Below are positions 10,842 through 42,837 of a stretch of 64,000 bases of DNA, in pieces (the first letter of the stretch is position 1; every line of letters starts with the position of its first letter). A program made the translations under genes and the position numbers. A model generated the notes under the pieces. The model did no database searches, had not been told where the DNA came from, and was given only the letters and a program-made list of their open reading frames with translations. This DNA is from Candidatus Eiseniibacteriota bacterium (GTDB lineage: Bacteria; Eisenbacteria; RBG-16-71-46; CAVPCR01), in NCBI GenBank assembly GCA_963823555.1, contig CAWGMA010000002.1:480001-544000 (forward strand), read 5' to 3'.

Positions 10842-12938
10842 TCAAGGGCCTTCGGTCCGGTCCAGGAGCGCCGTGACCCGCTGATTTCGGGGGTTGAGCT
10901 CGCGGGCCTGGAAGAGGAGTGCTCGGGCGTCCGCCACTCGATCCTGCTCGAGCCGCACGCGGGCGAGATCGAAGAGGAGGGTCTCGTCATACGGTCGCAG
11001 GGCGAGTCCGGCTGTGAACTGCGCCTCCGCTTCATCCAGCCTTCCTGCCTGAAGCAGCCAGCGACCGTAGTTGCGCCGCGCCTCCGGAATCTCGGGAGCG
11101 AGCGCCACGGCCCGAGCGAAACCGGTGCCGGCCTCCATATCGCGTCCCAGCTTCATGAAGGCGATCGCCCGGTTCATGTGCCCCATGGGCTCGCGCGGCG
11201 CGATCGTGAGCATTCTCTGATAGTGCTCGAGCGCGTTCGCCGCATCTCCACGGTCCAGGTACTCGCCAGCCGTCTCATCCTCATGGCGAACGGCTCGCTT
11301 GCGGATCGCTTCGCCGCCGGTGGCGGCGAGAAGCAGGACAACCGCGGCGATCAAGACTCGCCGCGCTCTCGGGCTCAGCGCCATCTCCTTGAACTCGAGC
11401 GCGACGAGCCACGCCGGAACGAGTACATAGGGCGCGATCTTGAGCGCATGCAGCATCGGGGTGGCGAGCAGCAGAGGATCGTCGTACTCCGGTAGGAGGA
11501 AGGCGATGGCCGTGGCCCCGGCCATCCCGGCGGCCGCCAGACGGTGCCGCCGGGCGAGGAGTGGCAACAGCATGAGCTGGACTATCGCGTAGTAGCTGAA
11601 CCAAGTCTGGACCAGCCAGCCGGTCGCGGCCAGGAGGAGAAGCGCCCGGCGAGGCAATGCCGTCGCGAAATCAGTGTCGCTGCGTTGCAGGAAGAGCAGA
11701 GCCAGGAAGAACAAGGCCGCAGCTGGCAGCAAGACGAGCAGGGGAGAGCTGTAGATGCCGGCGATCATCAACAGCTGACTGAGACTCACGCTGTTGAGCA
11801 GGTAACCTTTGGTCTGGAACTGGGCGAAGATCTTCTCGGAGAATTCGAGCCACGACCTTCCGCTGAGGAGGGCGAGACTTGCGAGAACAACGACACCTAG
11901 CCCGCACCAGACAAGAAGACGGCACGACCAGCGGGCGGCGGGTGATTCGCCCGGCCTGCGCTTCCGCACCCATGCAGTTCGCAGCAGCCGGCAGCCAGCG
12001 GGGAGGGCGAGGATGAATGGAAAGAGCTTGATGAGCCCGGCCCAGGCGATGGCGACCCCGGCGGCCGGCGCGTGCCGCCGCCGCATGGCGAGCAAGGCCA
12101 TCGCCACCGGCAGCCACATCCCGGCAAAGATGAGCCCGGGCAACGCCCAGCCGACGAAGTCCCACGAGGCAAAGAGCAGGGCGGAGATGGCCAGGCGCCC
12201 GTTCGTGTCCAGACCTAGAGCGAGCCCCGTTGCCCAGGCCATGACAAGCGCCGCGAGGATCTGCCAGCCCAGGTTTAGCCATGCCGTCTCGCGGCCGAAA
12301 GGTCGATGCAGGGTGGGGTCGATCCGGCGCACGAGCGCGTAGAGCGGGGAGCCGTTGAAGCCGTAGTCCCAGGTGATGTTGCGGCCTTCGGCCCTGATGT
12401 TCTCCTCTGCCCTCTCTATGATCAGTGCTCGGTGCACATCACCGCGAAACTCATCGATCTGATCGGCGCGTAGGTTCTCGCGCAGGATTCGCTCGGCCTC
12501 ATCGCGCAGGGCTCCGCTCTCGTCGGCGCGCCGTCTCAACTCCGCCAGCGGAGCGAGCGGGTCGAAATCGCCGCCTCGATCGCGCAGGAGGCCGATGTAG
12601 TAGGCACGCTGAGCACGCGGATCCTCGCGCACGACCGCCGGCGGGTGGTCGAGATCCCGCATCCCGACTTGGGGACGCTCCAGTGAAGCGTTGATCAACT
12701 GGTAGAGACTGCTATACGGGAACGAGTACTTGGCGCCGAGGTAGTAGTGAACGACGTTGATATTGACCAGATTCCTCGGCATGAGGCTGATGGCGAGCGC
12801 GTTGGCGAGGCCGAGGACGAGCAGCGCAAGCCAGGCCAGGCGCGCCAGGCGGGGCCTGGGCCGGAGGGCCAGGAGAGCCCCGCCCGCGGCCATGAGCGCC
12901 GCGCAGACGGCACGGTCATCGAGCGACCAGGCAAGCAT
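10842..12938 (-). CDS. Polytopic membrane protein, GT-C (GT87/DUF2029-like) glycosyltransferase candidate, with C-terminal TPRs
   Basis: Many hydrophobic segments; HYYLGAKY after the N-terminal TMs; IKLFP (KxxP) motif. C-terminal TPR helices (AEAQFTAGLALRP, ARELNP). Confidence 0.6.
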   Translation of the reverse strand: MLAWSLDDRAVCAALMAAGGALLALRPRPRLARLAWLALLVLGLANALAISLMPRNLVNINVVHYYLGAKYSFPYSSLYQLINASLERPQVGMRDLDHPPAVVREDPRAQRAYYIGLLRDRGGDFDPLAPLAELRRRADESGALRDEAERILRENLRADQIDEFRGDVHRALIIERAEENIRAEGRNITWDYGFNGSPLYALVRRIDPTLHRPFGRETAWLNLGWQILAALVMAWATGLALGLDTNGRLAISALLFASWDFVGWALPGLIFAGMWLPVAMALLAMRRRHAPAAGVAIAWAGLIKLFPFILALPAGCRLLRTAWVRKRRPGESPAARWSCRLLVWCGLGVVVLASLALLSGRSWLEFSEKIFAQFQTKGYLLNSVSLSQLLMIAGIYSSPLLVLLPAAALFFLALLFLQRSDTDFATALPRRALLLLAATGWLVQTWFSYYAIVQLMLLPLLARRHRLAAAGMAGATAIAFLLPEYDDPLLLATPMLHALKIAPYVLVPAWLVALEFKEMALSPRARRVLIAAVVLLLAATGGEAIRKRAVRHEDETAGEYLDRGDAANALEHYQRMLTIAPREPMGHMNRAIAFMKLGRDMEAGTGFARAVALAPEIPEARRNYGRWLLQAGRLDEAEAQFTAGLALRPYDETLLFDLARVRLEQDRVADARALLFQARELNPRNQRVTALLDRTEGP

Positions 12939-12968: not shown

Positions 12969-15900
12969 TTACTGCGTCCCTCCGGGCTTCGCCGGCGCCT
13001 GGGTCGCGGTCGGCTTGACCTCGGGCGGCTGGGTCAGCGCCTTCCGCGGCTTCTTGACCTCCATGTCGGGTCCGGTGTGGCACTGCACGCAGAGCGTCCG
13101 GGCCTTGCCGTGGGTCAAGAGCTGCGGGATGTCGCCCGAATGCGGGTTGTGACAGGACGAACAGGTGATCGGGTCTCCCGTCCGCGGGTCGAGGTCAGGA
13201 CCCGTGAAGGGATGCGAGTGCTTCTCCGCCGGGTTGTGGCAGGTCGAGCACAGGTTCTCCTGCGAGTCGACGAGGATCCCCTTGGTCTCGCTCCCGTGCG
13301 GGTTGTGGCAGTTGAGGCACTCCGTCATGCCTGGATGCTGCACCTTGCCCGTGAAGAGCTTCCGGTCGTGACAGGAGAGACATGTCTGCTGAACGTCCTC
13401 GCCCGAGAGGAGCTTGGCCGTTCGCGCCACGTGCGGTGAATGGCACGAAACGCACGCCTCCTGGGTCTTGAGCGGGGCATGAACGACCGCCTTCTCGGCG
13501 TCCTTGGCGTGGTCGTCGTGGCAGGCGGCGCAGAGGGCGATGCCCTCGGCCACGAGCCCGGTCTTCCCGGCGTGGCACGACTCGCAGCTCCCTTCGGCGT
13601 AGGGGGCATGCGCGTTGGCGAGCATGAGCCCCTTCTTCCCGGAGCCGTGCGGATCGTGGCACGAGGTGCAGTCGCCGGATCCGGCCTGGTAGCCGCGATG
13701 GGCCGTCGTGAAGGCTGAGGTCTTCGTGTCGTGGCACTTGGCGCAGCCCTCGCGGATCGAGGTGGCGAGGAGCCCCTTCACCGCGCCGACATGGGGTTCG
13801 TGGCAGGTCGTGCACTCGCCCGCGCGCGCCGGCTGATGGGCGTTGGCGCCACTGGCGCGCTCGGTGACATCCTTGTGGCAGTCGGCGCACAGGCCGGGAA
13901 CCGCCTTGGCGAGGAGGCCGGGCATGATGCCGTCGTGCCCGCCATGGCAGGTGCGACACTCGCCATCGCGCACGGGAGAGTGCACGAGATCGGGCTCGGC
14001 GGTCGCCACTTGCGTCACGACATCGCCATGGCAGCCGGCGCAGAGCCCCGGAGTCGCCTCCTTCAGGAGCTTCTCGGTGCCCGTGGCGTGAGCGTTGTGA
14101 CAGCTCGAGCATTCGCCCATCTCGACCGGGGCGTGCAGCGTGCGCCCCGCCGGCTTCTCGATCGCCCCATGGCAGGAGCCGCAGAGCTCCGCCTCGACGG
14201 AGACGAGCTGCGGCTTCATGCCGGCGACCGCTGGCTTGTGGCAGGTCGAGCAATCCCCTTCGGCGAAGGGTGCGTGCTCGGCGAACTGGATGAGGCCGCG
14301 CTTGTCGCTGCGGTGCGGGTCGTGACACCCGGTGCAGGAACCGTCCTCGACCACGAACTCGCGGTGTGCCTTCTTGAGCTCGCCCGAGCTCGGATCGTGG
14401 CAGGAAGAGCACGCCGCCGCGAGGCGGATCTTGCCGTCCGCGTCCTTGGTCTTGTGGCCGTCGTGGCAGGTCAGGCACTGGCCTTGCTTCACCGGTTCAT
14501 GGACCACGCCGACCGCGACGCTGTCGCGCATCGCCGTGTGGCAGGAGAAGCAGAGGTCGGAGCCCGTCTTTTGCAGCAGGCCTTTCGCGCTCTCCGACGC
14601 GTGCGGGCTGTGGCAGGAGCTGCACTGGCCGGCGGCGAGAGGTTCGTGCATCTCCGCCGTGGTCACGTTGGCGGCGACATCGCCATGACAGCTTCCACAG
14701 AGCTCACCTTGATTCGCCGTCAGGAGCTGCTTCTCGGTTCCGGCGTGCGGCAGGTGGCACGTCGCACAGCCCTCGGTGAAGGGTGGATGTTGAGCGGCGA
14801 GCTGTCGCTCATCGAGCTGCGCCGGGTGGCATCCGATGCACATCCGGAGCTCGGTGGTGCGGAGAAGACCGGCGTTGGCCGCCCCGTGGGCGTCGTGGCA
14901 CATGTTGCACTGCCCCGCATAGAAGGGCAGGTGGACGACCGGTTGCTCGAGCTGGGTTGCGACCTCGCCGTGACAGGTGCCGCAGGTCTCATCGAGCGTC
15001 GCCTTCATGAGGAAGGGCTCGCTGCTCGCATGGGCGCCGTGGCAGGCGTCGCAGTCGCCCTCCATGGGCGGGTGCTTGACTGCAGCAGCCGCGACCGCAT
15101 CGGTGACACCGGTGTGGCAGGACCGGCAAAGGGCCTCGACCGGCTGCCGGAGCATGGCTGCGCCACCACCATGGGCGCCGTGGCACTGGTCGCACCGGAA
15201 CTCCTTGAGCGGCGCGTGCACGGAGGTCTGCGCCAGCTGATCCCGGATCCCGCCGTGACAGGCGAGACAGAGCTCCTCGCCGCTCCCGCGCAGGAGCCCT
15301 GGCCGCTCCGCGTTGTGCGGCGAGTGGCACTGGAGGCATTCACCGGCGGCCGCCGGCGGATGCCCTCCCGCCGCCATCGCCACGTCCTTCACGTCCGAGT
15401 GACAGGTGAGGCAGAGCTCCTCGCGTGAAGCGACGAGCGCCTCCGGGTTCGCCGGGAGCCCCGAGTGACAGGTCGCGCACTCGCCCTGGGCGTAGGGCGC
15501 GTGGACATAGGAGCTGCCTTCCTCCGCACTGCCGGCGTGCGGATCGTGGCAGGATGAGCAGGATGCGCCCGCCACTTCAGGTCGAGCATGGAGTTCCGGC
15601 AGCTCCGTCGCTTGACCGTGGCAGCGGGCGCAAATCTCCTTCTCGGGGGCGAGAAGCAGCTTCGGCGGCCGGGGCGTCATGGGGCGCATGGCAGGCGGCG
15701 CAGTTTCCCTCGGCGAAGGGCGGGTGCTGCTTCTCGGCCTTGAGCGCGGCACCGATCTTGGTGTGGCAGGCGGCGCAGGCCTCCGCGGTGCTCGCTCCCC
15801 GCATCAGCCCCTTCACGTCCGAGGCATGCGAGTCGTGGCAGGAGGCGCAGCTCACCCCCTCGATCTCGAGATGCTGGGAGACGGCTCCCGGCGTGGCCAC

Positions 15901-16188
15901 CACGTCGCCATGACAATCGGTGCAGAGCTGGGGGAAGTCCTTCTGCAACGTGAGCTTCTGCTCGAATCCGTGACGCTTGTGGCAGGACTCGCAGTCCTCC
16001 TTCTTCACCGGGTCGTGCACGATCTTCTTGTTGTAGGCCTCGCGGGCATCCTTGTGGCATTCGTAGCAGGGCCGCCCGGCCGCCTGTGCGTCCCGATCCC
16101 CAACCATCAAGAGGAGACCGGCGGCGACGAGTGCCCACAGAATGCACGCGGCTCCGGAACCCACGACGCCACGGGCGCGCGCGATCAT
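12969..16188 (-). CDS. Giant periplasmic multiheme c-type cytochrome, 42 CxxCH motifs (~1070 aa); one frameshift near 15670
   Basis: Signal peptide MIARARG...AQA plus 6 CxxCH in the 15577..16509 frame, then 36 CxxCH in the 12969..15752 frame (hand count). Alternating HxP..G.CxxCHxPH / LL....LCxxCH paired-heme repeats. Confidence 0.93.
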
Positions 16189-16742
16189 CACTTTTCCTCC
16201 TTCGTGACAGTGGGGGGCACGGAGGGGGAGTCCGCCTTGTAACCGTTCACCTCCTTGAGCTGGAAGCTCCAGAAGGAATTCGGGGAGAAGTGGGGCGGGA
16301 AGTTCTGGAATGCCCAGGTCGAATCCACCGCCCCCGAGTCCCCATAGACATAGATGTGTACGGCCGGGTTGTTGAGCGCGCTCGAGGCGCTCAGGAACTG
16401 GCCTTGATCGATGATGAAATCGGGAAGGAAGCGCGTGACCCTGGCGCTGAACTCGGTATCTCCGATGTAGAAGGTCTCGTTCAGGTGAACCCGGTTCTCC
16501 TCGCGCCACTCGGGATAGAGCCGGCTGCCGGTCACGATCGAGAACGTGACGCTCGTATCGACCTCACCCCCGGCCGCGCGCACGGCGTCGGGAGCGGGGA
16601 CCATCGTCGAGTCGGCGAGGATGGCTGTCTCCTCCGCGGCCGGGGCGACCGGTCCGGGAAGCGAGTGGGGTGGGGTTTGCGCTCGCCCGGCCCAGCCCCA
16701 GAGGACGAGGAGCAAGCTCGCGCCGAGGGTCCAGGTCTTCAT
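16188..16742 (-). CDS. Small exported protein (DUF2155/ResB-periplasmic-like)
   Basis: Signal peptide MKTWTLGASLL...GRA; motif RVTRFLPDF...SASSALNNPAV. Its stop overlaps the cytochrome start (GTGATG). Confidence 0.65.
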   Translation of the reverse strand: MKTWTLGASLLLVLWGWAGRAQTPPHSLPGPVAPAAEETAILADSTMVPAPDAVRAAGGEVDTSVTFSIVTGSRLYPEWREENRVHLNETFYIGDTEFSARVTRFLPDFIIDQGQFLSASSALNNPAVHIYVYGDSGAVDSTWAFQNFPPHFSPNSFWSFQLKEVNGYKADSPSVPPTVTKEEK

Positions 16743-16746
16743 GCCT

Positions 16747-17387
16747 TCACTCCGTGCTTCCTGTGGTCTGGGGGGTGGCGCCACGTCCGGCCCCCCCGGT
16801 GGTGGGGAAGGTCTCGAGCATCTCCTGCACGGCGATCGTCGCCATCTGCTCGAGGCTCTGCACGCGGCCGAAACCGAAGACCGACTCGCCATCGCCCCCG
16901 TCACGGCTGTGCACCGCGCTCCACAGCACGCGCCCGCCTGGGGTCTCGAGCAAGCGGAGCGAGAGCGAGATCTGGGGGATCATCTCCCCCTCGAACTGCC
17001 GGGTCGTGTAGCCGGTCAGCGATCCCACCATGATCGCGTTGGCGCCGAGCTCCTGCCCGACCGAGTCCACGAGGTCGGGGAGGCGATCGAGCATGAGCCA
17101 TGGCTCCTTGGCGAGCGCGGCCTGTCCACCTCGCCCTGATCCACGATCTGAACCCCCGGCTTCTGCGCCAGCTCGACCGTCAGGATCGGCAGCACGCGAT
17201 CGGCGGCATCGCGGTTCGAGGTGTAGTTGGCGAGGGGCAGGATGGCGATGCGCCAGGTTCCGGCCAGCGGCTGGGCGATGTAGACCTGTGGTTTGGGCCC
17301 GCATCCCGCCAGCGAGGCGAGAAGGCGAGCTGCGACCACCGCCAGGGCGGCAAGCGAAACTCGATGCGACCGATCGTGCGCTCTCAT
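16747..17387 (-). CDS. Lipoprotein, CsgG/PelC/GNA1162-like alpha/beta fold; frameshift near 17122
   Basis: Lipobox LAGC then RIAILPLANY in the 17016..17933 frame. Continues as ELGANAIMVGSL...ISLSLRLLE...GRVLWS in the 16747..17304 frame. Paralog of the upstream gene. Confidence 0.8.
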
Positions 17388-17388
17388 G

Positions 17389-18000
17389 TCACTGTCCCTG
17401 CGGCAAGGTTGACAGGATATCCCGCGACATGTCCGCGGTGAGCTCGCCCATGGTGTGCACCTCGCCGAAACCGAAGATGGGGAAGCCCGGTCCGCCACGC
17501 CGGGTCCGGCTCCCGGTCCACACGATGCGACCGGATGCGGTGTCCACCAGCCGCACCTCGAGCGAGAGCAGGGGGTAGCTGTCGCGTCCCACTCGCTCCA
17601 TCGTGTAGTCCCGCACCGCGCCCATGAAGACGCCCTGGACTCCCATCTCCTCGCCGAGCCGCGCGAGCTCCTCGCTCGACCAGGGGTTCGTGACCGGAGT
17701 GCCGCCCCGCAGCGCGAACATGGAGGCGACGAGCTGACCCGGTTCGACGACCTGGGCGAACCCCCTGCGCAGGAGCTCCGTGAAGAAGACGTCCGCGACC
17801 TTCTGCCCGGCGAGCTGATCCTGGGCCAGGGAGTTGAACGGGGCAACGGCCACCCGCTCGTAGTAACCGAGATCGGCCTCTTCATCCACGAAGTGGGCGG
17901 GCCCCGCACAGGCGGAGACGAGAAGGGCCACACAGAATACGGCGCCTATCCCCCTCAGCGACTCCACCCGGCGAGCTCTGTCTGTCCTCTTTGTCTTCAT
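17389..18000 (-). CDS. Lipoprotein, CsgG/PelC/GNA1162-like alpha/beta fold
   Basis: Lipobox VSAC; RVAVAPFN, EMGVQGVFMGAVRDY, LSLEVRLVDTASGRIVW. Confidence 0.85.
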   Translation of the reverse strand: MKTKRTDRARRVESLRGIGAVFCVALLVSACAGPAHFVDEEADLGYYERVAVAPFNSLAQDQLAGQKVADVFFTELLRRGFAQVVEPGQLVASMFALRGGTPVTNPWSSEELARLGEEMGVQGVFMGAVRDYTMERVGRDSYPLLSLEVRLVDTASGRIVWTGSRTRRGGPGFPIFGFGEVHTMGELTADMSRDILSTLPQGQ

Positions 18001-18030: not shown

Positions 18031-19685
18031 TCAGAAGTCCTTCTGCAAGTTGGCGGAGTAGTAGCGGCTCCGCGGCCCGTTCTGCTGCTCCACCTGCTGC
18101 GTGCTCAGGAGCACGCGGAACTCACGGGGCAGCCAGAAACCCAGATCGAAACCAAAGAGTCTCTCCTCGCTCTCGAAGGACCGCAAGCGGGAACGCCGGC
18201 GCTCCCAGTTCGCCGCCAGCGTGACCTCGCGCGTGGCGGTCCATGAGGCGTTGAGGCTGGTGACGTTGTCCACGCGGATGACGAGCCCCTCGGCCGTATC
18301 GCGCCGGTGGGACGCCACGAAGCTGAAGTTCTGCGTCGGGTTGTAGCCGAGCAGGAGGTCCCACTGCCGCGTGCCCTGGCGCAGCCCGGCGAAGTCGGGC
18401 TGGGAGAGACGCGTCCAGGTGATGTCGAAGCGCGTCGTGGGTACCGGTACCGTGCGCAGCTGGAGGAGCTGGCGCGACTGATCGCGGCGGATATCGGTGC
18501 TGCTGTCCCGCTGGTAGCTCGCCTCGGCCCGACCGGCCATGCCGCGGAGGATGGGTCCGTCCAGCATGGCATAGACCGAGTTGGTCGGGATCCCGGCTCG
18601 GTTCTCCGAGCTGTCCTTGATCCGCTCCGTCCTCCGGAAGCCGGCCAGGAGCTCGACGCGCCGCCAGACCTGGTCACGGAATGTCGTCTCGAAGCGCAGG
18701 TAGTCGGCGATCAGGCGCCCTTGCACCTCGTTCGTCTGCCGGTAGTCGCGGGCCAGCTGGAAGGTGAGCGGCACGATCGGCTGGTACTGGACGCCGGCGC
18801 TCAGGAAGGTCTCATCGGTATCGATGGGCAGGGGGAAGGCGTTGTCATCGGTGGACTGCCAGCGCTGGAGGGCGGTTCCGAAGAGGGAGACCGAGCGCGC
18901 GGGACGCCAGTTGAGGGCCGCATTGATGCGATGGGCCTCGAGATCGCGGCGTCGCTCGCGGGCGCTGAAGTCGCTCAAGAGGACATCGTAGTCGGCGCTC
19001 AGACTCACTCGCCTGATCGTCGGTCCGGCCCCGGACTCCGGCGCGCAGCTCCTCGGTGACCTGATCGACGCCGTTGGGCCGCCGGTCATCCGCGTCGATG
19101 CGCCGGAGGCCCACGAATCCGCCCACGTCGTCGGTGCCATAGGAGAGTTCCGCGCGACGGTCGTCGTTGGCCGAGGGGCCGAGGCCGATCTCGCGCTCGC
19201 GGTGCTGCCATTCGGCAAAGAGGTTGGGAAGATTGCGGGGCGTGACCCGGACATTGATGTAACCGAAACGCTCCTTGGCCGGGTCGGGGCCCGGCGACAC
19301 CTCTTGCCACGGTGTGAACTGACCTTCGAGGCGCCAGGTCTGGGCGATCAGCTCCCCCTGGAATCGGTAGCGGAAGACATCGCCGTCACTCACTCCCAGC
19401 TCGCTCAGGTAGCGCAGGAACGCGCGCAGCCTGAGGTCGAGCCCGGCCGGGGGTCGTGCCCCGCGTCCACATGTCGAGCTGATGCTGCATGGTGTCGATG
19501 GTCTGATCGCCGAAGATCGTCGTGCCCGTGAGATCGTTGCGTGTGATGGACCCGATGTAGCGACCGTCGATCTCCATCCCCCTGGCGGGCAGCGCGACCA
19601 TCGCGACCAGCGAGGAGCAGGCGCAGATCACGAGCGGGATCGCGATCTTCCTTCCCGGTGCGCTCCATCGCCGGCCTGGCATCAT
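18031..19685 (-). CDS. Outer-membrane beta-barrel protein (~550 aa); frameshifts near 19450 and 19020
   Basis: Signal peptide (...AMVALPARG). Amphipathic beta-strand pattern across three joined frames; C-terminal YYSANLQKDF ends in Phe. Confidence 0.8.
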
Positions 19686-19689
19686 GGGA

Positions 19690-20871
19690 TCAGTACCCGA
19701 TCTCGATCCCGCCCGGTTCACCCGAGGCCGGCCGGTGGACGTTGAACCCGGTGGCGCTCGAATAGTCGCGGCCGTGGCAGTCGTGGCAGCCCTGGGTCGC
19801 CGAGGCTCTGTGTGCGCCTCCTGGTCCGAGATCGCGTTCATGACGATGCCCTCGACCGTCTCCGAGTCCCGGGATGCCGTCCGCCGGGATGTGGCAGCCG
19901 AAGCAGAAGCGGCGGTTCTGCTCGGCATCGCCAGGGTGTCGGTGAGGCCGCTCCAGCCGACGACGCTGATCGCTGATCAGGAAGGCGTTGGGCTGCGACC
20001 CGATTGTTGCCCTTCGGAACCGTGCGGGTTGTGGCAGTCGTAGCAGGGCAGCTTGTCGCCGACCTGGATGTGCGGCCGGCCAGGAGAGGGCGACGTTGGA
20101 GTTGCGACGGATCTGGTGGCCGGCCGACGCTCGCCGTTCAGCCCGCTGTCGTAGTAGTCCTCGATGTAGCGGTTCTCGGTGATCCATCCCGGACGGACCG
20201 TCGGCGCCGTGGCAGGAGAAGCAGAGGCCGTAGCTCGCCGGTGGCGCCCGATCCCGGCGTGGCCGCTGATCCCGCCATAGAGGGCGACCAGGATGTCGCG
20301 CGGGTTCTCGGTGCCGTGCGGGTCGTGGCAGTTGAGGCAGAGGCCCTGCCCGGCCGCGTCCTGGCGCGGCATGTCGGGATCGTGTGGCGTGCGGGGAGAT
20401 CGTAGTGGCCGGCGGCGGTGACCCGCGGGTCGGTGTAGACGACCTCTCCCGGCCAGCGTCCCCGGAACTCGACGCCCGCGCGCCGGATGCCGCCCGCGTT
20501 GGCCTCGAAGTAGCCGGCATCGGGCTCGGTGTCCGGCATGCGGTCGATCTCGCCGAGCGGGTAGTTCGTGGGCCGGGACTGGTGACAGGGGCGGGCGCCG
20601 TCGGCCCAGAAGGCCAGGCGGTTGGTCGTTCTCGGTGAAGAGGTTGCTGGCCGAGGGGGACGCGCCGGCATCAGCCTCGTGGAACGCGTGGCACTGCGTG
20701 CACTCGCCGCGCGTGGGCGATTCGGTCACCTCGCGGAGGACACCGGTGGCGGGATCCCCGTGCGGATCATGGAGGAGTTCCTGTGCCAGTGACCCAGGCG
20801 GTCAATCCCAGGACCGCCGTGAGGACCATGCCGGAAGTGGTCTCACCGGTCGCTTTCATCGGCCGAAGCAT
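19690..20871 (-). CDS. Exported multiheme cytochrome c (6 canonical CxxCH plus one degenerate site); multiple frameshifts
   Basis: RBS GAGGGA and ATG 20871, hydrophobic leader, then HDPHGDPATGVLR...GECTQCH. CLNCH, CFSCH, CYDCH, CFGCH and CHDCH follow, spread over several frames. Confidence 0.75.
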
Positions 20872-21021: not shown

Positions 21022-22130
21022 CTACCAGGGATCGCGGTCGCCACCCTGGCGGTGGCACTGGCGGCAGCTGTTGCGAGCGTCGAGCGCCGTCGTCGCCCTG
21101 CTCCGTCACCGTTCCGGTCCCGACCATGTAGATCAGGCCGAACGCGTTCTGGTTGCCGTGCGACTTGTGGCACGACATGCAGGACGGGGTGAGCTCGGTG
21201 TCGGTGCCGTCGTAGCCGGTGGCCGAGCCGTAGGGCTTCGGCTTCTGGCCGGTCGGCGACATCACCTGAACCTGGTTGCCCTTGGCCGACGAGCGGTGGC
21301 GAGCGAGGAGTGCCCGCCGCCAGCGGCGCCGATGTTGACACCACCGGACGGGTGACGGACGAACTCCTCCGCCGGAGCGCCGATGCCGCCGATCTCGGGA
21401 CCGCCCACGTCACCGTGGAAGTTGGTGTGGCAGTTCTTGCAGCACGTTGGCGTAGGCCGACTTGCTCTGGTCAGGCTCGTTGAACGTGATGGCCCCGACG
21501 CCGTAGTGGTTGGCGTTGGTGCCACCCGAGACGTCCTCGTAGACCCAGGCGCCGAGGTCGTTCGCAGCCTCGACGTCACCGCGGGTGTAGCTGATGCTGG
21601 TGGACGTCCCGCCATCCACGAACAGGTTCCGGTAGCCGCCCTGGGCCGCATGGCTCCGGTCGAGCCGCGGCGTCCGACCGTGAACGGAGTGGCAGTTGGC
21701 GCAGTTCAGGCCATCCGGGTTGGCGAAGGTGCCGCCGGGAGCGATCGTCCGTCGAGCCGAGCGTGTGCCCGGTGGGCGGCGGATACAGGCCGTTCCCGCC
21801 GACCTCGTTCAAGGCGCCCGCCTGCCGGACGTAGCCGTTGCTGTGCGCTTCGAAGACGTCCGGAGCGAACGCCTGCCCGTCGTGACAGCCGAGGCAGAGA
21901 TCGTTGATGTCGTTCCGGAGCAGGTAGTGGTACGGGCCGTCGGCGCAATGGGACCATAGTTGCCCGTGCCGTTCGGGTTGTAGCCGTGCGACTGGCTGTA
22001 GTGCATGACATGGCAGTCCTGAGCAGATCAGGCCGACCCCGAAATGGTAGTCGCCGGCGAAGCCGACGGCGGCGAATGCCACCATGGCCAGCCCGACTCC
22101 CATCGCGGTCAAGAGACGCTTTAGGTTCAC
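21022..22130 (-). CDS. OmcS-like hexaheme outer-surface cytochrome (~370 aa); multiple frameshifts
   Basis: RBS AGGAGGT, GTG 22130, signal peptide. Reconstructed: GDYHFGVGLIC(S/Q)DCHVMHYS...YLL...LCLGCH...GHTLG..APGGTF...LNCANCHSVH...GGYRNL...CKNCHTNFH...RHP...CMSCHKSHG...CRQCHRQG...W-stop. Confidence 0.8.
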
Positions 22131-22165
22131 GTGAACACCTCCTGGTGGAGAAACCCGTCCCACCC

Positions 22166-23225
22166 TCAGGGCTCGGCCGTCGCCGAGTCCTCCGGATTGG
22201 ACGGAAGGCCAGAGAGTTCCAGGTTGATGACCTGACAGCGGGCACCAGCCCGTTCCAGGACCACCAGCTGGTCCTCGGCCAGAAATGCGCAAGCGGCCGG
22301 GTAGTAGAACTCGCCGGGTCCCTCGCCATAGCCCCCGATGCGCCCGCGATACCCGCCCCGGGAATCGAAGATGCTGATCGAGTGCCGGATCGTATCGGTG
22401 ACCCAGAGGGTGCTCTCCGGGCCATAGACGGCGTGGACCGCCATCGAGAACGTGCCGTCGCCGTCGCCGTGCTCTCCGAACTGGGCGAGGAGCGAGCCAC
22501 CGATCGTGTAGACCGAGATCTGGTACTTGGCCTTGGGGTCGGTGATCGCGATCTCGGTTTCGTCCGGGTTCACGGCAATGGCGATGGGGCCGATCCAGGC
22601 GCCGGTGTCCGTCTCGGGGAAGCCGAGCTGCCCCACGAAACTTCCATCGTGCTCCAGGATCATGACGCCCGAGCGAGCGCCCGAGCAAAGGAGGTAGATG
22701 CGACCGCTCCTGCCGATCGCGATGGCCGAGGGCCTGGTCTGGCCCTCGAGCTCGGCAGGAAGAGCGGGGTGCAGGATGCCGAGATGCGAGCCGCGGGGGC
22801 TCAGGACCTCGACATCGGCATTGGTGGCATCGACGACGAACATGCGGCCGCGGCGATCCAGGGCGAAGGAGGCGGGGTCGACGATGCCGCCCGACGCGTC
22901 CCATGGGGTCGTAGCGCACGGCGCCGCGCGAGCGCCCCGTCTCGTCGAAGGTGACGATGCGGCTGTTTCCGGTGTCGGAGACGAGGAAGACCCCCCGCGC
23001 CGAGTCGGCGGCGATGCCGCGGGGCCGGCGGAAGACGTCCAGGGCCGAGGGGCCGTAGAAGATGGTCTCGACGGAGCGGATGGAGGGGGCAGCAGAAGAA
23101 GCCTCATCGCCAAGCGCGCCATGCGCGGGGGCGGTGAGGCTCAAGATCGCGAGGAGGGCTCCCAGCGGGAGAAGGAGGCTCTTCGACGCGCGGTGACCCA
23201 AGTCTGCGTTTCCCCTGCCAATCAA
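22166..23225 (-). CDS. NHL-repeat beta-propeller protein, exported; frameshift near 22905; start uncertain
   Basis: FRRPRGIAAD...VSDTGNSRIVTFD, QFGEHGDGDGTF, WVTDTIRHSISIFD, IGGYGEGPGEFYYP. Hydrophobic leader LLLPLGALLAILSLTAPAHG. Confidence 0.85.
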
Positions 23226-27920: not shown

Positions 27921-28814
27921 ATGCGCCCCATGCTTGGCTCCCGGTCCCGCCGAGTCGTCATGATCCTCGTCCTCCTCCTCGCCACCTGCTCCGTGGCGTG
28001 GGCGGAGGGGGATGCGGCCGACGAACCAGCCGTCCCGGAAACCCGCTGGTTCGCCACCGAGCGGCTCAACATCTTCATCCCCTTCGTCATCTTCACCGGG
28101 CTCGTGGGTTCCTTCATCGCGCTCGCCCGACGCGGCTCCCAGCTCTTCGTGCGCCGCATCGCCGGGCTCGACGCCATCGACGAGGCCATCGGCCGCGCCA
28201 CCGAGATGGGTCGTCCCATCCTCTACTCACCCGGCCTCGACGAGATGGATCAGCCGGGCACCGTGGCCTCGATCAATATCCTGGGCCAGGTCGCCGAGAA
28301 GGCGGCCACGTATGACTCGCGTGTCACCGTGCTCAACCGCGACCCGATCGTGATGAGTGTCGCCCAGGACGTGGTCAGGAGCGGCTACCTGCGCGCCGGA
28401 CGCCCCGACCTCTTCCGTGAGGAGGATGTCTTCTACGTCACCTATAGCCAGTTCGGGTATGCAGCGGGGGTGGCCGGCTTCATGGTGCGCGAGCGGCCCG
28501 CAGCCAACTTCTTCCTCGGCCGTTTCTATGCCGAGTCGCTGGTGATGGCCGAGACCGGACAGACCACGGGCGCCATCCAGATCGCGGGCACCGACTCCGA
28601 TGCCCAGCTCCCCTTCTTCATCACCGCCTGTGACTACACGCTGATCGGGGAGGAGCTCTACGCCGCCTCGGTCTATCTGGCGCGGGAACCGCTGCTCCTC
28701 GGGAGCCTGAAGGCCCAGGACATGGCCAAGCTCCTGATCATCGTCTTCATCGTGCTGGGTGTGGTCGGCGGGTTCCTGGGCGTGTCCCTCGACTTCTGGA
28801 CGGCCGCCGGATAG
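27921..28814 (+). CDS. DUF6754-like membrane protein (module copy 1, gene A)
   Basis: RRIAGLDAIDEAIGRATEMGRPIL...FYAESL..AETG...GAIQIAGT...QLPFF..ACDYTLIGEELYAAS.YL. Clear paralog of 41563..42837. Confidence 0.85.
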   Translation: MRPMLGSRSRRVVMILVLLLATCSVAWAEGDAADEPAVPETRWFATERLNIFIPFVIFTGLVGSFIALARRGSQLFVRRIAGLDAIDEAIGRATEMGRPILYSPGLDEMDQPGTVASINILGQVAEKAATYDSRVTVLNRDPIVMSVAQDVVRSGYLRAGRPDLFREEDVFYVTYSQFGYAAGVAGFMVRERPAANFFLGRFYAESLVMAETGQTTGAIQIAGTDSDAQLPFFITACDYTLIGEELYAASVYLAREPLLLGSLKAQDMAKLLIIVFIVLGVVGGFLGVSLDFWTAAG

Positions 28815-28830
28815 GGGAGGGCGAGGACGC

Positions 28831-29490
28831 ATGCTCCAGCGCACCGGACCCCTGGTCTTCGCCATCGTCTTCGGCGTCTTCATGGCGCTCCAGTACTTCA
28901 TCCCGCACCCCGCGATCGTCCGCTTCTACAACCTGGTCCTCGACTGGAAGCAGGTCGTCTTCGGCTGCACGCTCACCCTCGGCATCTTCAGCCTCCTCCG
29001 CTTCCATGGCCGCAAGGTGGCGCGCCGGGACCGCGGCGCCTTCTTCAGCGGGGTCGCCCTGGTGTCGTGCCTGGCCACGGTCGCCTGCGGCATCTTCTTC
29101 GGCATCGAGACCGGACCCTATCGCTGGCTCTTCGATCGCGTGCAGGCCCCGATGCAGGCGACCCTGTTCTCGATGCTCGCCTTCTTCGTCGCCTCCGCTT
29201 CCTATCGGGCCTTTCGCGCCCGCTCGGTCCACGCCACGCTGCTCCTCGTGGCCGGCTGCATCGTGATGCTGGGACGGGTGCCGACGGGTGATCTCATCGG
29301 CTTCGACGTGGGCGGGGCGCGCTACTCGCTCGCCGGGCTCGCGAGCTGGCTCCTCGACATTCCGAATCTTGCGGCAAAGCGCGGAATCCTGATCGGGGTC
29401 GGCCTCGGCATGATCTCGACCTCGCTCCGCATCATCCTCGGCATCGAGCGCGCGTACCTCGGACAGTCGCGCCAGCAAGGTGGATCATGA
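28831..29490 (+). CDS. Conserved polytopic membrane protein (module copy 1, gene B)
   Basis: ATLFSMLAFFVASASYRAFR and W..DIPNLAAKRGILIGVGLG...ILGIER. Paralog of 40898..41521. Confidence 0.85.
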   Translation: MLQRTGPLVFAIVFGVFMALQYFIPHPAIVRFYNLVLDWKQVVFGCTLTLGIFSLLRFHGRKVARRDRGAFFSGVALVSCLATVACGIFFGIETGPYRWLFDRVQAPMQATLFSMLAFFVASASYRAFRARSVHATLLLVAGCIVMLGRVPTGDLIGFDVGGARYSLAGLASWLLDIPNLAAKRGILIGVGLGMISTSLRIILGIERAYLGQSRQQGGS

Positions 29491-30377
29491 ACGGCGGCGG
29501 CAGAGAGCACGGCTGGGTCGAGCGCCTGGTGGCCTTCGATCGCCGCTGGATCTATCTCTTGATGGCGATCGCGGTCGCCTTGCCCATGCTCTTGCCGCTC
29601 AAGCTCCCGATCGTGGTCTCGAAGGAGGTCGCGGCCTTTCATCGCGAGATCGAGGCCTTGCAGCCTGGGGACGAGGCGTTGCTCTCGATCGACTATGAGC
29701 CCGATGTCATGGCCGAGCTCGATCCCATGACCGAAGCCGTTCTCGACCGCCTGTTCGCCAAGGGCGTCAAGGTCATCTGCATGACCAACTACGCGGGTGG
29801 AGTCGGGGTCGCCCAGCGCCAGCTCGAGGCGGCGGCCACACGTTATGGCAAGGTCGACGGCACCGATTATGTCTTCCTCGGTTACAACCCGGACTGGTCG
29901 GGCACCATGCTCCGTCTGGGGGAGAGCATCCGCGCCACCTTTCCGGTCGATCAGTTCGGGCACCCGACCAAGGACCTTCCGGTGCTGGCGGCGTGCAATG
30001 CCTACAAGGACATCGAGCTCCTGGTCTCGATCTCGGGGAGCGCGCTCTCCGAATACTGGGCGGCCTACGCCGGGGCGCGCTACGGGCAGCGCATGGTGTC
30101 GGGGAACACGGCGATCCAGGCCATCTTCATCTATCCCTTCTTCCAGTCCGGACAGATCAAGGGTTTCCTCGGCGGGCTCAAGGGGGCGGCGGAGTACGAG
30201 ACCTTGATCGAGCGCCCGGCCTTCGGTGTCCGCGGCATGGGCTCGCAGTCGGCGGGGCACATCCTCATCGTCGCCGCCGTCATCCTCGGCAATGTCGGCT
30301 ACTTCGCCATGCGGAAGCGGGGCACCGCGACGAGCGGCAACCGTCTCAAGAGCCTCGATCCGGAGGGCCGCTCATGA
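29487..30377 (+). CDS. Conserved membrane-anchored protein (module copy 1, gene C)
   Basis: DRRWIY, IDYEP..AELDPM, DYVFLGY, YPFFQSGQI.G.LGGLKGAAEYE. Paralog of 40016..40876. Confidence 0.85.
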   Translation: MNGGGREHGWVERLVAFDRRWIYLLMAIAVALPMLLPLKLPIVVSKEVAAFHREIEALQPGDEALLSIDYEPDVMAELDPMTEAVLDRLFAKGVKVICMTNYAGGVGVAQRQLEAAATRYGKVDGTDYVFLGYNPDWSGTMLRLGESIRATFPVDQFGHPTKDLPVLAACNAYKDIELLVSISGSALSEYWAAYAGARYGQRMVSGNTAIQAIFIYPFFQSGQIKGFLGGLKGAAEYETLIERPAFGVRGMGSQSAGHILIVAAVILGNVGYFAMRKRGTATSGNRLKSLDPEGRS

Positions 30378-31003
30378 GCGCCGACGTGAGCATCTGGATC
30401 ACCGCTCTCCTCACGCTCGCCATCTTCTCCTTTCTCTACAAGGAGAACCCCGTCTTCCGCTTCGCCGAGCATCTCCTCGTCGGCGTGTCAGCCGGGTACT
30501 ACGTCGTCCAGTACTTCTACTCGGGCGTGATCAAGAAGCTCGTGGTCCCGGTGGGGCAGGACTTCGGCGCCAACTGGCCGCTCATCTTCGGCGGTGTCCT
30601 CGGCGTTCTCATGTTCACGCGTCTGTCGCGCCGCTTCGGCTGGGCGGCGCGTTACCCGATCGCCTTCTACGTCGCCGCGGGTGCCGGCTACTTCATCCCC
30701 TCGATTCTCGATGCCAACATCCTGAAGCAGGTGGGGGGTACGCTGACCGCCCCCGCGGCGGCGACGAGCCCGTGGGCCATGGTCTCGGCCTTCATCCTGG
30801 TGGCCGGCGTGATCTCGAGCCTCATCTACTTCTACTTCTCGGTCGAGCACCGGGGCCCCGTGGGCACGGCATCGCGGATCGGCATCCTGTTCCTGATGCT
30901 CGGCTTCGGTGCCAGCTTCGGCTACACGGTGATGGGGCGTATCACGCTCCTGATCGGCCGCTTCCAGTTCCTGTTCCACGACTGGCTGGGGTTGATCCAG
31001 TAG
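30374..31003 (+). CDS. Conserved polytopic membrane protein (module copy 1, gene D)
   Basis: TLAIFSFLYKENP.FRFAEHL.VG.SAGY and GFGASFGYTVMGR..LL. ATGA coupled to gene C; paralog of 39376..40011. Confidence 0.85.
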   Translation: MSADVSIWITALLTLAIFSFLYKENPVFRFAEHLLVGVSAGYYVVQYFYSGVIKKLVVPVGQDFGANWPLIFGGVLGVLMFTRLSRRFGWAARYPIAFYVAAGAGYFIPSILDANILKQVGGTLTAPAAATSPWAMVSAFILVAGVISSLIYFYFSVEHRGPVGTASRIGILFLMLGFGASFGYTVMGRITLLIGRFQFLFHDWLGLIQ

Positions 31004-39375: not shown

Positions 39376-40011
39376 CTAGAACAGCTTGCCGGTGAGGATC
39401 GTCACGTAGTCCTTGAGGAAGATGACGCGCTGGACGAGGAGAGCGACACGGCCCATCACCGTGAGACCGAACCCGGCGCCGAAGCCGACCATCAGCGTGT
39501 AGATGCCGACCCGCGACGCGGTGCCGAGAAGTCCGGTGTGGTGCTTGGAGAAGAAGAAGTAGGAGAGCGAGCAGACGAGACCGACCAGGGCGAGGAAGAA
39601 GTTGAGCCCGCCGAGCGACGCCGTCACCGGGCGGATGGTGCCCTCGACCTGCAGGAAGACTCCGGTCTTGAAGGCCAGCGGGATGAAAACACCGGTCGAG
39701 ATCCCGATGTAGAAAGCGAGCGCGTACCGGGAGAGCCAGCCCTGGCGCGGCGAGAGACGGAACCACATGAGCACGCCGAGGGCCACCGGGATCAGATAAT
39801 GCCACTGGTGATGCTGGGCGATGGGCACCCACACCTTGTCCCAGAAGCTGGTCCAGAAGAGCAGCATCGTCCAGTAGCCGGTGGTGATGCCGACCCATAG
39901 CCGCTCCACGAACTTGTAGATCGGGTTGTCGCCGATCAGGAACGAGAAGATGGCGAGCGTGACGAAGGCGGCCAGCGTCTGCCAGGCGAGAACGTCCCAG
40001 GTCGGTTCCAT
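39376..40011 (-). CDS. Conserved polytopic membrane protein (module copy 2, gene D)
   Basis: TLAIFSFLIGDNP.YKFVE.L.VG..TGY and GFGAGFGLTVMGR..LL. Confidence 0.85.
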   Translation of the reverse strand: MEPTWDVLAWQTLAAFVTLAIFSFLIGDNPIYKFVERLWVGITTGYWTMLLFWTSFWDKVWVPIAQHHQWHYLIPVALGVLMWFRLSPRQGWLSRYALAFYIGISTGVFIPLAFKTGVFLQVEGTIRPVTASLGGLNFFLALVGLVCSLSYFFFSKHHTGLLGTASRVGIYTLMVGFGAGFGLTVMGRVALLVQRVIFLKDYVTILTGKLF

Positions 40012-40015
40012 ATTC

Positions 40016-40876
40016 CTACCTCGCCCCCATGGCGCGCTTGCGCGCCCGCCGCTGCGCCACGTAGGCGATGTTGGTGAGCACCATGAACACGATGATCACG
40101 AGGTGGGTCGTCATCTGGTAGGGCATCCCGCGCGAGCCCTGGCCACGGTGTCCGGTGAGCATCTCGTACTCGGCGGCACCCTTCATGCCCGGGATGAGCC
40201 CGAAGATCTGCCCGGACTGGAGATAGGGGTAGTAATCGGAGGCCATGACGCCCGTCACCCCGAGGGCGACGGGGACCCCGTACTTGGCGTTGCCATAGGT
40301 GATCCACATGTCGGCGACGTTGCCGCCGGCGAGCGAGACCACCCCCTTCACGTTCCGGTAGTTGTGGATGTCCTCCATCATGGGGATCGAGTCGACCGGC
40401 GTGCCGTAGTAGTCGGTGGGGAACGGCACGCGGAAGTCGGTGCCCATGGCGAGGATGGTGATCGCCGGGTAGGGCTTGTAGCCGAGGAAGGCGTAGTCGA
40501 TGTTGCGCTCTTTGCCCTCGTCCGTGGCCACGCGCACGATCAGCTCCTCGGCCATCGCCGGTCCGAACTGCGAGAGCGCCGTGATGACCACGCGCGCCCC
40601 CCGCTGGAAGGCCTGGCGGAGGATGGCCTCCGCCATCGGGTGGAGCTCGGCGAGCGTCGAGGGGTCGTAGTCGATGGCGAGGAAGAGGTTGTCTCCCGGC
40701 TCGAGCGCCTCCACGAACTCGTAGACGTCCCGGACCTCGCTCGAGATGCCGGTCGGAACGCTGAAGCGCAGCACCGCCGGGAGGAGAACGGCGACCCCCA
40801 GGATGAAGTAGATCCAGCGGCGATCCACCACCAGCATCTTGTCGTACCAGCGAGAAGTCTCGGGGCGCGCTTCCAT
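40016..40876 (-). CDS. Conserved membrane-anchored protein (module copy 2, gene C)
   Basis: DRRWIY, IDYDP..AELHPM, DYAFLGY, YPYLQSGQI.G...GMKGAAEYE. Confidence 0.85.
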   Translation of the reverse strand: MEARPETSRWYDKMLVVDRRWIYFILGVAVLLPAVLRFSVPTGISSEVRDVYEFVEALEPGDNLFLAIDYDPSTLAELHPMAEAILRQAFQRGARVVITALSQFGPAMAEELIVRVATDEGKERNIDYAFLGYKPYPAITILAMGTDFRVPFPTDYYGTPVDSIPMMEDIHNYRNVKGVVSLAGGNVADMWITYGNAKYGVPVALGVTGVMASDYYPYLQSGQIFGLIPGMKGAAEYEMLTGHRGQGSRGMPYQMTTHLVIIVFMVLTNIAYVAQRRARKRAMGAR

Positions 40877-40897
40877 CGGGTTCTACTCCTCCACCAC

Positions 40898-41521
40898 CTA
40901 GTCCCGGCCCATGTAGGAGCTCTCGATGCCGAGCAGGATCTTCATGCTGTAGCTGATGGCGCCCAGAGCGACACCGATGATGATGGCGCGTTTAGCGGCC
41001 ATGTTGGGTACGGCGAGGATCCAGCGCACCACTTCCGAGTTCCAGGTCGAGAGCGGCTCCGGCAGCGGGATCAGCCGCAGCATGACCACGAAGGCGGTCA
41101 ACAACAAGATCGCGGCGAGCACGGTGCGCACGCGGAATGCCCGGTAGGCGGCGCTCGCGATGTAGAAGGCGAGCATCGAGAACAGGGTGGCCTGCGCCGG
41201 GACCAGGACCCACTGGAAGAGGTTCATGAAGAGCGTGCCCGACTCGAAGCTCTCGCGCCGGAGCCCGGTCACGACCATGACCAGGAAACCGATGATGGTG
41301 GTCGCCGAGTAGAACCGCTCCTTGCGATCGTGCTGCGCCTTGTTCCAGGTGTTGCGGAGGAGCGAGAAGATGCCGATCGGGAGGGCCAGGATACCGATCA
41401 CGATCACGAAATCGTTGGCGTAGGTGAACAGGAACTCCGAGAACGGGTGCGGCACGAAGTACTGGATCACCATGATCAGGCCGGCGACGAAGACGAGGAA
41501 CAGCGGAATCTGCCTCTTCAT
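40898..41521 (-). CDS. Conserved polytopic membrane protein (module copy 2, gene B)
   Basis: ATLFSMLAFYIASAAYRAFR and W..AVPNMAAKRAIIIGVALG...LLGIE. Confidence 0.85.
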   Translation of the reverse strand: MKRQIPLFLVFVAGLIMVIQYFVPHPFSEFLFTYANDFVIVIGILALPIGIFSLLRNTWNKAQHDRKERFYSATTIIGFLVMVVTGLRRESFESGTLFMNLFQWVLVPAQATLFSMLAFYIASAAYRAFRVRTVLAAILLLTAFVVMLRLIPLPEPLSTWNSEVVRWILAVPNMAAKRAIIIGVALGAISYSMKILLGIESSYMGRD

Positions 41522-41562
41522 CGCTCATGCATCCTGGTTGAGCCCATTGTTGCTCCGAGTCG

Positions 41563-42837
41563 TCATACGGCGTGCACGAGGCGCGCGATGATGTTGGAGC
41601 CGAAGAACGTGTAGGCGGCGACCCCGACCACGAGCAGGGTGAGGATCACGATCTTGGCCAGGTCCTGCGCCTTGAGCGGTCCCATGAGCACCGGTTCCTG
41701 CGACAGGTAGGCCGAGGCCGCGTACAGCTCCTCGCCGATCAGCGTGTAGTCGGTGGCGGCGACGAAGAACGGAATCTGCGCCAGCTGGTCGGTGCCCGAG
41801 ATCTGGATCGAGCCGGTGATGCTCCCCGCCTCGGCCAGGAGCAGGCTCTCGGCGTGGAAGACCCCCATGTAGAAGTTGGTCGCCGTCCGTTCGCGGAGCA
41901 TGAGCCCGTTCACCGCCGCCACGTACGGGAACTGCATGGCCGAGATGTAGAAGATGTTCTCCGGGCGGTAGACGTCGGGACGTCCCGCCTGGAGATAGGC
42001 CTCGCGCACGGTCTCCTGCGCCATGGCCATCATGACCGGATCGTTCACCGGCACCAGGATCGGCGTCTGGTACTCGGCGGTGCGCCGGGCGACGCGGGCG
42101 AGGATGGTGTAACCGGCGATGGTGGCGATGTCGCCCGCGGTGCCGGTGCCGAGCACGAAGAGGATCGGACGGCCCATCTCGGTGGCGCGGCCGATCGCCT
42201 CGTCGACGGCCGAGATGCCCGCGATCGGGCGGATGAAGAGCTGGCGCCCCTTGCGGGCGGACTCGATGAAGCCGACGGTGGCGATGGCGAAGAGCACGAC
42301 CGCAATCAGGACGTTCAGTTTCCCGGTGTGGAACCAGTTGCCGGCGGCGATGCCCGTGACCGGAGCGGTGAAGGGGGAGACGCCGCCGTCGGCGGCCCGC
42401 CCGCGAATCCGGAACGCGCGCGGCTCGCCCACGGGCACGAACGTGGGATTGGGTTGGCCCTCGAGCGAGGCTTCTTCCGATTCGTGGTTGTAGGTGGTGG
42501 TTCCGCGCGGCGCGTTGCCGACGAGCACCCACGCCTCGTCCGGCGCGTCGGGCGCCGGCGCCATCCACACCTCGTAGGTGAGGAGCTCCGCGTCGTCGGG
42601 GGAGAGCGTCCAGCGAAGGGCGATGCCGTGTCCGTTGTCGTTGGGGGCGTCGCGGGCGGTGAGGGAATTCGGCGGGCTGAAGGCGATCGGCGGGGGTGGA
42701 TCGGTGATGTCCGCCGCGGCCGGATCGGGTTCGACGGCCTGGTCCTGTGCGAAGAGTCCCGCCGGCGCCGGGAGCAAGAGCCCGATCCCGACCGCCAGCG
42801 CTACGCCGAGAACGGCGAGTGTTCGGAGCGTGGGCAC
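41563..42837 (-). CDS. DUF6754-like membrane protein with N-terminal extracytoplasmic FN3-like domain (module copy 2, gene A)
   Basis: Signal peptide, DAPNDNGHGIALRWTLS beta-sandwich, then RPIAGISAVDEAIGRATEMGRP...DYTLIGEELYAASAYL. Confidence 0.85.
   Translation of the reverse strand: MPTLRTLAVLGVALAVGIGLLLPAPAGLFAQDQAVEPDPAAADITDPPPPIAFSPPNSLTARDAPNDNGHGIALRWTLSPDDAELLTYEVWMAPAPDAPDEAWVLVGNAPRGTTTYNHESEEASLEGQPNPTFVPVGEPRAFRIRGRAADGGVSPFTAPVTGIAAGNWFHTGKLNVLIAVVLFAIATVGFIESARKGRQLFIRPIAGISAVDEAIGRATEMGRPILFVLGTGTAGDIATIAGYTILARVARRTAEYQTPILVPVNDPVMMAMAQETVREAYLQAGRPDVYRPENIFYISAMQFPYVAAVNGLMLRERTATNFYMGVFHAESLLLAEAGSITGSIQISGTDQLAQIPFFVAATDYTLIGEELYAASAYLSQEPVLMGPLKAQDLAKIVILTLLVVGVAAYTFFGSNIIARLVHAV

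Follow-up and report, generated by a model that had tools for sequence, protein, structure and literature searches.

A gene on the minus strand of a 64,000-nucleotide stretch of Candidatus Eiseniibacteriota DNA (hereafter the window; contig CAWGMA010000002.1, positions 480,001 to 544,000, assembly GCA_963823555.1) is, judged by its sequence, a copy, very probably damaged only in assembly, of a compact OmcS-type hexaheme cytochrome lying in a reduced osc-like cluster. The protein that it encodes is likely exported, and we put the chance that it stacks head-to-tail into a heme wire, as OmcS does, at about one half. The gene and its principal features are as follows, the distant members being 116 of 149 representatives, after 33 had been excluded as partial or off-length.

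21022..22130, minus strand: compact OmcS-type hexaheme cytochrome gene of about 365 codons, with 6-7 frame changes; 69-73% identity to intact orthologues
22136..22143, minus strand: Shine-Dalgarno sequence AGGAGGTG, 5 nt ahead of the GTG start
22056..22130, minus strand: predicted Sec signal peptide, read by eye, with a basic start, a hydrophobic core and an A-x-A-type end before GDYH
22001..22003, minus strand: histidine of CHVMH, aligned to OmcS His16; invariant (129/129)
21986..21988, minus strand: extra conserved histidine (SQSH), with no counterpart in the canonical OmcS alignment; 126/129, and 94/110 ungapped distant members
21415..21417, minus strand: extra conserved histidine (CHTNFH); 129/129, and 110/115 distant members, as against only 24/35 in canonical OmcS

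Three-frame translation of the minus strand gives a GTG start at 22130 and a stop ending at 21022, with alternating frames between them. The landmark series that the initial annotation had assembled by hand is present in this place, in the order GDYH, C-x-D-CHVMH, LL..CLGCH, GH..APGGT..L.CANCHSVH, GYRNL, CKNCHTNFH, RHP, CMSCHKSH and CRQCH, the second of these being interrupted by the first frame break. The leader of 25 codons ends in GFA, GDYH begins at 22055, and the Ala-Gly-Asp junction is kept across the compact OmcS-type family. The predicted secreted protein thus read carries six CxxCH motifs, as do 109 of the 116 full-length distant members. The same annotation had given this gene the strongest ribosome-binding site of the operon. 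AGGAGGTG, with 8 nt, is the longest Shine-Dalgarno match beside any start in the cluster (that of the 42-heme gene, AAGGAGG, is comparable with 7 nt), but this is a statement about match length and does not gauge strength itself. A six-codon in-frame insertion at 21226-21243 (minus strand), near PKPYGSATG, sets this copy apart from all four aligned orthologues and may be a loop or a consensus artefact.

Kinship to OmcS is remote and is seen by profile and by fold. Profiles matched 6EF8 with E values of 6.5e-8 and 2.8e-9, hhalign gave 2e-22 for the kinship, the VIA fold search returned the same fold as 6EF8, and OmcS was the only PDB match by either profile or VIA. A likeness arising by convergence, through the CxxCH motifs of an unrelated hexaheme protein, would agree with the absence of any OmcS match when a single sequence was searched against the PDB, with the weak Foldseek match to OmcS (E 0.47) and with a motif-driven hhalign background. 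It is largely refuted, however, and in our judgement very improbable, given that landmarks outside the motifs (aromatic-His-x-G, LL, GH, APGGT, YR and HP) occur in order, that neither profile nor VIA picks out any further multiheme protein in the PDB, and that the neighbouring genes are homologous to those of omcS loci and similarly ordered. The description of the protein as OmcS-like stands as kinship by profile and fold, at an identity of approximately 20-25% that the single-sequence search missed.

Compared with OmcS of Geobacter sulfurreducens (GSU2504; 6EF8/6NEF), the compact protein has its six CxxCH motifs similarly ordered, with 12 histidines in register, and shares the aromatic-His-x-G start, CHxMH, APGGT, HP, the terminal CxxCH and a scant secondary structure. 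It differs in being some 65-75 residues shorter (about 340 mature residues versus 407), in probably having two additional N-terminal residues (GD) and in possessing two additional conserved histidines; moreover, polymerisation has been seen for OmcS, whereas the compact protein is known from sequence. The initial annotation had overlooked the shorter length and the two additional histidines, as well as the osc-like surroundings. The compact protein is not OmcS proper, since on the canonical profile compact members do not exceed 66.5 bits and canonical proteins reach about 560. The OmcS paralogues OmcT, GSU2501 (OscC) and OmcJ, for which no wire is known, have the full length and lie close to OmcS, with scores of about 550 bits on the OmcS profile, unlike the compact family, which itself scores the first and second canonical paralogues equally (median 46 and 47 bits). 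These scores place the compact family at the level of an outgroup to OmcS, OmcT, GSU2501 and OmcJ alike.

The gene is multiply broken. Frameshift-aware alignment gave 6 frame changes against four of six intact orthologues and 7 against the other two, with breaks near 22022, 21946, 21749, 21445, 21300 and 21085; one of them is a two-base event, and a compensating pair close by is possible. The earlier figure of about eight frameshifts was therefore fair, but a slight overcount. Along the corrected path, identity to the intact orthologues is 69-73% over 324-355 aligned codons, a match far beyond chance on these alignments, with zero in-frame stops. All 12 cysteine codons and the 14 conserved histidine codons are readable in place.

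Very probably, the breaks arose as errors in the assembly consensus and the gene is intact in the living cell. In the same genome, the 3.9 kb of rpoB show 19 frame changes, whichever of two intact references is used; under refined scoring, rpoB and rpoC show 18 and 19, respectively, with no stop in either, and coxA is split into 8 pieces. The breaks are clustered: of 50 genes taken as controls (49,280 nt, 12 changes in total), 44 are free of any. Most breaks consist of one additional base. Among 44 one-base insertions drawn from rpoB, rpoC and both hexaheme cytochrome genes of the cluster, 24 hold a pair of codons that both encode the expected residue, in many cases differing by a C/G wobble, versus 27.5% expected if random (p 1.4e-4). 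The two alleles appear as if both had been written out, from which we infer that the consensus was merged from reads of two related organisms. In a 621-nt contig from another run, of approximately 91% identity, the extra bases of 22022 and 21746 are missing and position 21945 carries a further one (rows attributed by depth, among the matches listed); one row, at 21081, is not accounted for by a simple error. By position, the heavily frameshifted rpoB, rpoC and coxA lie at C3:543200-551800 and C1:552981-554217, and most genes of the genome are clean.

The breaks concentrate in the two hexaheme genes of the cluster (6 and 14, versus 0-2 in the six other genes), as would be expected if these two were true pseudogenes decaying in this strain. 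We regard such decay as improbable. The path holds no stop codon and retains all 12 cysteines and 14 histidines, mismatches against the same-genus orthologue peak at third codon positions (32% versus 21% and 20%), and the single-copy rpoB and rpoC genes show an equal density of breaks and an equal bias to one extra base; the excess of synonymous codon pairs within the insertions points the same way. Findings from this assembly that rest on frameshifts should be treated as artefacts until the reads are examined. The intact orthologues are better material, and the damaged copy itself contributes little.

The histidines bear on the question of the wire. In the compact family, 13 histidines are invariant (129/129) and a fourteenth is present in 126/129; canonical OmcS has 12 invariant histidines (35/35), onto which 12 of the compact 13 map in order, the GH histidine being aligned to the GH of OmcS by HMMER and not by hhalign. 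The equivalent of His16 is kept in 109/110 ungapped distant members. Wang et al. 2019 reportedly identified His16 as the inter-subunit ligand of OmcS; a search of the literature for this assignment did not find it stated. In the available part of PMC6584659, 12 ligand histidines are described for OmcS, in agreement with the 12 that are invariant, and heme 5 draws one ligand from the neighbouring subunit. The initial annotation had concluded that the determinant of polymerisation is retained. The histidine of CHxMH is indeed conserved, but a kept histidine does not by itself support a filament subunit: of 12 second paralogues from canonical omcS loci, sorted by C-terminal motif, every one retains the 12 histidines, and according to the portion of PMC12977616 available, wire formation is known for just one of the four paralogues in G. 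sulfurreducens, OmcS.

The compact gene is the second in a run of eight genes, the others being the following.

22166..23225, minus strand: NHL-repeat beta-propeller gene, upstream, with one break; Pfam NHL in orthologues; homologue in 38/75 canonical omcS loci
19690..20846, minus strand: second hexaheme cytochrome, of a different family, with about 14-15 breaks; a 9-heme protein takes the slot in some relatives
18031..19685, minus strand: predicted outer-membrane beta-barrel of about 540 residues, likely a shortened OscE type, with two breaks; profile match to the 750-residue canonical gene 92%, E 5e-7
17389..18000, minus strand: lipoprotein 1, OscF/G type; hhalign 99.6% to the 200-residue canonical gene; homologue in 53/75 loci
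16747..17385, minus strand: lipoprotein 2, OscF/G type, with one break; hhalign 99.2% and 98.6%
16188..16742, minus strand: small conserved secreted protein, in 8/8 relatives' clusters
12969..16188, minus strand: 42-heme cytochrome with 42 CxxCH motifs and one break; fusion of the canonical 26-heme and 16-heme genes

This order is kept in 8/8 further genomes, save that NHL lies elsewhere in one and the 42-heme gene is in pieces in two; the latter is unbroken in 6/8 relatives examined. Canonical loci have the order NHL, omcS, an optional paralogue, a 470-residue propeller, a 750-residue barrel, lipoproteins of 200 and 370-430 residues, a 600-residue peptidyl-prolyl isomerase (PPIase), and 26-heme and 16-heme genes, in agreement with the osc operon as summarised in the accessible parts of PMC13194489 and PMC12977616; the letters OscD to OscH are assigned here by gene order, size and Pfam domains. 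Like the osc cluster (GSU2505-GSU2493, as far as those parts describe it), the run proceeds from NHL through the OmcS-type and second cytochrome genes to a barrel, a pair of related lipoproteins and giant multihemes. The compact gene stands directly behind the NHL gene, which is the omcS slot in most canonical maps, and the barrel with two OscF/G-type lipoproteins follows downstream. The 26- and 16-heme content is found as a fusion, collinear throughout (the 26-heme proteins align to residues 1-650 of the 42-heme protein, and the 16-heme proteins to 665-1037).

The differences are those of a smaller cluster. Neither the 470-residue propeller (OscD type) nor the PPIase (OscH type) was found in it, partial D-type matches and PPIases being found elsewhere in the genome. 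The barrel is of 540 rather than 750 residues and lipoprotein 2 of about 210 rather than 370-430; two giant cytochrome genes are fused into one, and a small protein is added, for which there was no Pfam match and none to five canonical companions. Taken over its length, the second cytochrome does not resemble OmcS. Its 15 histidines are invariant in 6/6 orthologues, its gaps between motifs are long, and a 9-heme protein replaces it in several families of the class. The match of the barrel to the 750-residue gene is a partial alignment; the protein ends in a C-terminal Phe, and its look-alikes in the atlas include outer-membrane proteins. Directly behind the 42-heme gene, at 10842-12938 (minus strand), lies a gene for a 698-residue membrane protein with C-terminal TPR repeats, absent from this place in genome G001; at a guess it could be an enzyme resembling a protein glycosyltransferase, its Pfam matches being to TPR only.

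Intact relatives occur in other genomes. A DNA search of 41 genomes gave matches in 17, including the source, with intact six-heme proteins of approximately 330-365 residues. Within the class, 58/172 genomes match at E<=1e-10; 53 strong matches are free of internal stops and 50 of these are near full length. A wider survey yielded 180 confirmed stretches in 185,579 genomes, and in 77 of the best 79 of the 180 loci, which were examined, the six motifs lie in one frame. Companions were counted in the 59 loci with at least 6 kb downstream: NHL in 51, the compact barrel in 41, each lipoprotein type in 47 and a giant multiheme in 52, with an OscD-type propeller and an OscH-type PPIase in 4/59 each. 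The records are labelled Eisenbacteria, Krumholzibacteriia, Zixibacteria, Latescibacterota, Planctomycetota, Acidobacteriota and Armatimonadetes. Two Planctomycetota-labelled loci (L151 and L186) hold the compact protein inside a full cluster of the canonical type and so link it to the role of omcS. In six others with that label (L144, L152, L158, L173, L176 and L178), none of the tested companions lies nearby on the same strand. Canonical omcS with a full osc-type cluster was also seen in a record labelled, as recorded, Bdellovibrionales (L023/L024).

Sec export and heme attachment would very probably yield a bis-His hexaheme chain, as in OmcS. The barrel and the two lipoproteins would probably form a channel for secretion or anchoring, by analogy with OscEFG, and the 42-heme protein would, somewhat less surely, relay electrons across the periplasm. 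The subunits may then polymerise, a step that we consider evenly balanced, each lending the histidine of its CHVMH to a heme of the next. A protein with the OmcS fold that makes no polymer is a real possibility, although one short of an even chance. Such a protein would be a cytochrome of the surface or the periplasm, monomeric or in short oligomers, within a porin-cytochrome conduit made up of the 42-heme relay, the barrel and the hexahemes, or else a cap or anchor with a spare histidine on heme 5. This possibility is favoured by the 13 invariant and one near-invariant histidines for six hemes, since an anchor is argued, in the accessible part of PMC13712944, to need one histidine beyond two per heme. 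The missing OscD- and OscH-type genes, the paralogues without a known wire (PMC12977616, in the part cited above) and a weak match of the barrel to the GSU2204-family model (E 6e-6, far below the cut-off) also fit it. Against it, no other OmcS-type gene was found in the source genome, the compact gene fills the slot behind NHL, and its ribosome-binding match is the best of the cluster; a major subunit would account for this better than a cap would.

The genome further holds four CcsA/CcmF-type matches for cytochrome c maturation, NapC/NirT-like and NrfD-like genes and a heme-copper oxidase. A second dense multiheme region, with about 66 CxxCH motifs, lies at C4:280000-310000; it has a NapC/NirT-like match, and a gene for cytochrome c assembly is close by. 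Elsewhere in the window, two similar sets of small membrane-protein genes (27921-31003, plus strand, and 39376-42837, minus strand) are both also present in G001.

Homologues of OmcS and the osc cluster are described as widespread in the accessible parts of PMC10954620 and PMC12954529, and PMC8478452, as far as available, covers Eisenbacteria and OmcS without linking them. The literature searched, mostly without subscription papers, gave no description of the compact branch; Shen et al. 2025, the paper on the osc cluster, may already name these phyla in its supplement. It is a rather unlikely proposal that the family is a distinct branch of compact OmcS-type nanowires across many uncultured lineages, having a minimal eight-gene export machine without dedicated propeller or PPIase, a single 42-heme periplasmic rod as feed, and two extra conserved histidines that join subunits a second time or hold a metal, in either case a feature that OmcS of Geobacter lacks.

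A single Geobacter species has supplied the solved OmcS wires. If the compact protein polymerises, about a third of the genomes of the class, and members of several other phyla, could wire electrons to minerals or partners, and such wires would have been missed by single-sequence searches against OmcS. The compact protein is a candidate for heterologous production. With a protein about one-sixth shorter and a cluster smaller than those of Geobacter, the family lends itself naturally to testing which residues and which helper genes are required for a wire.
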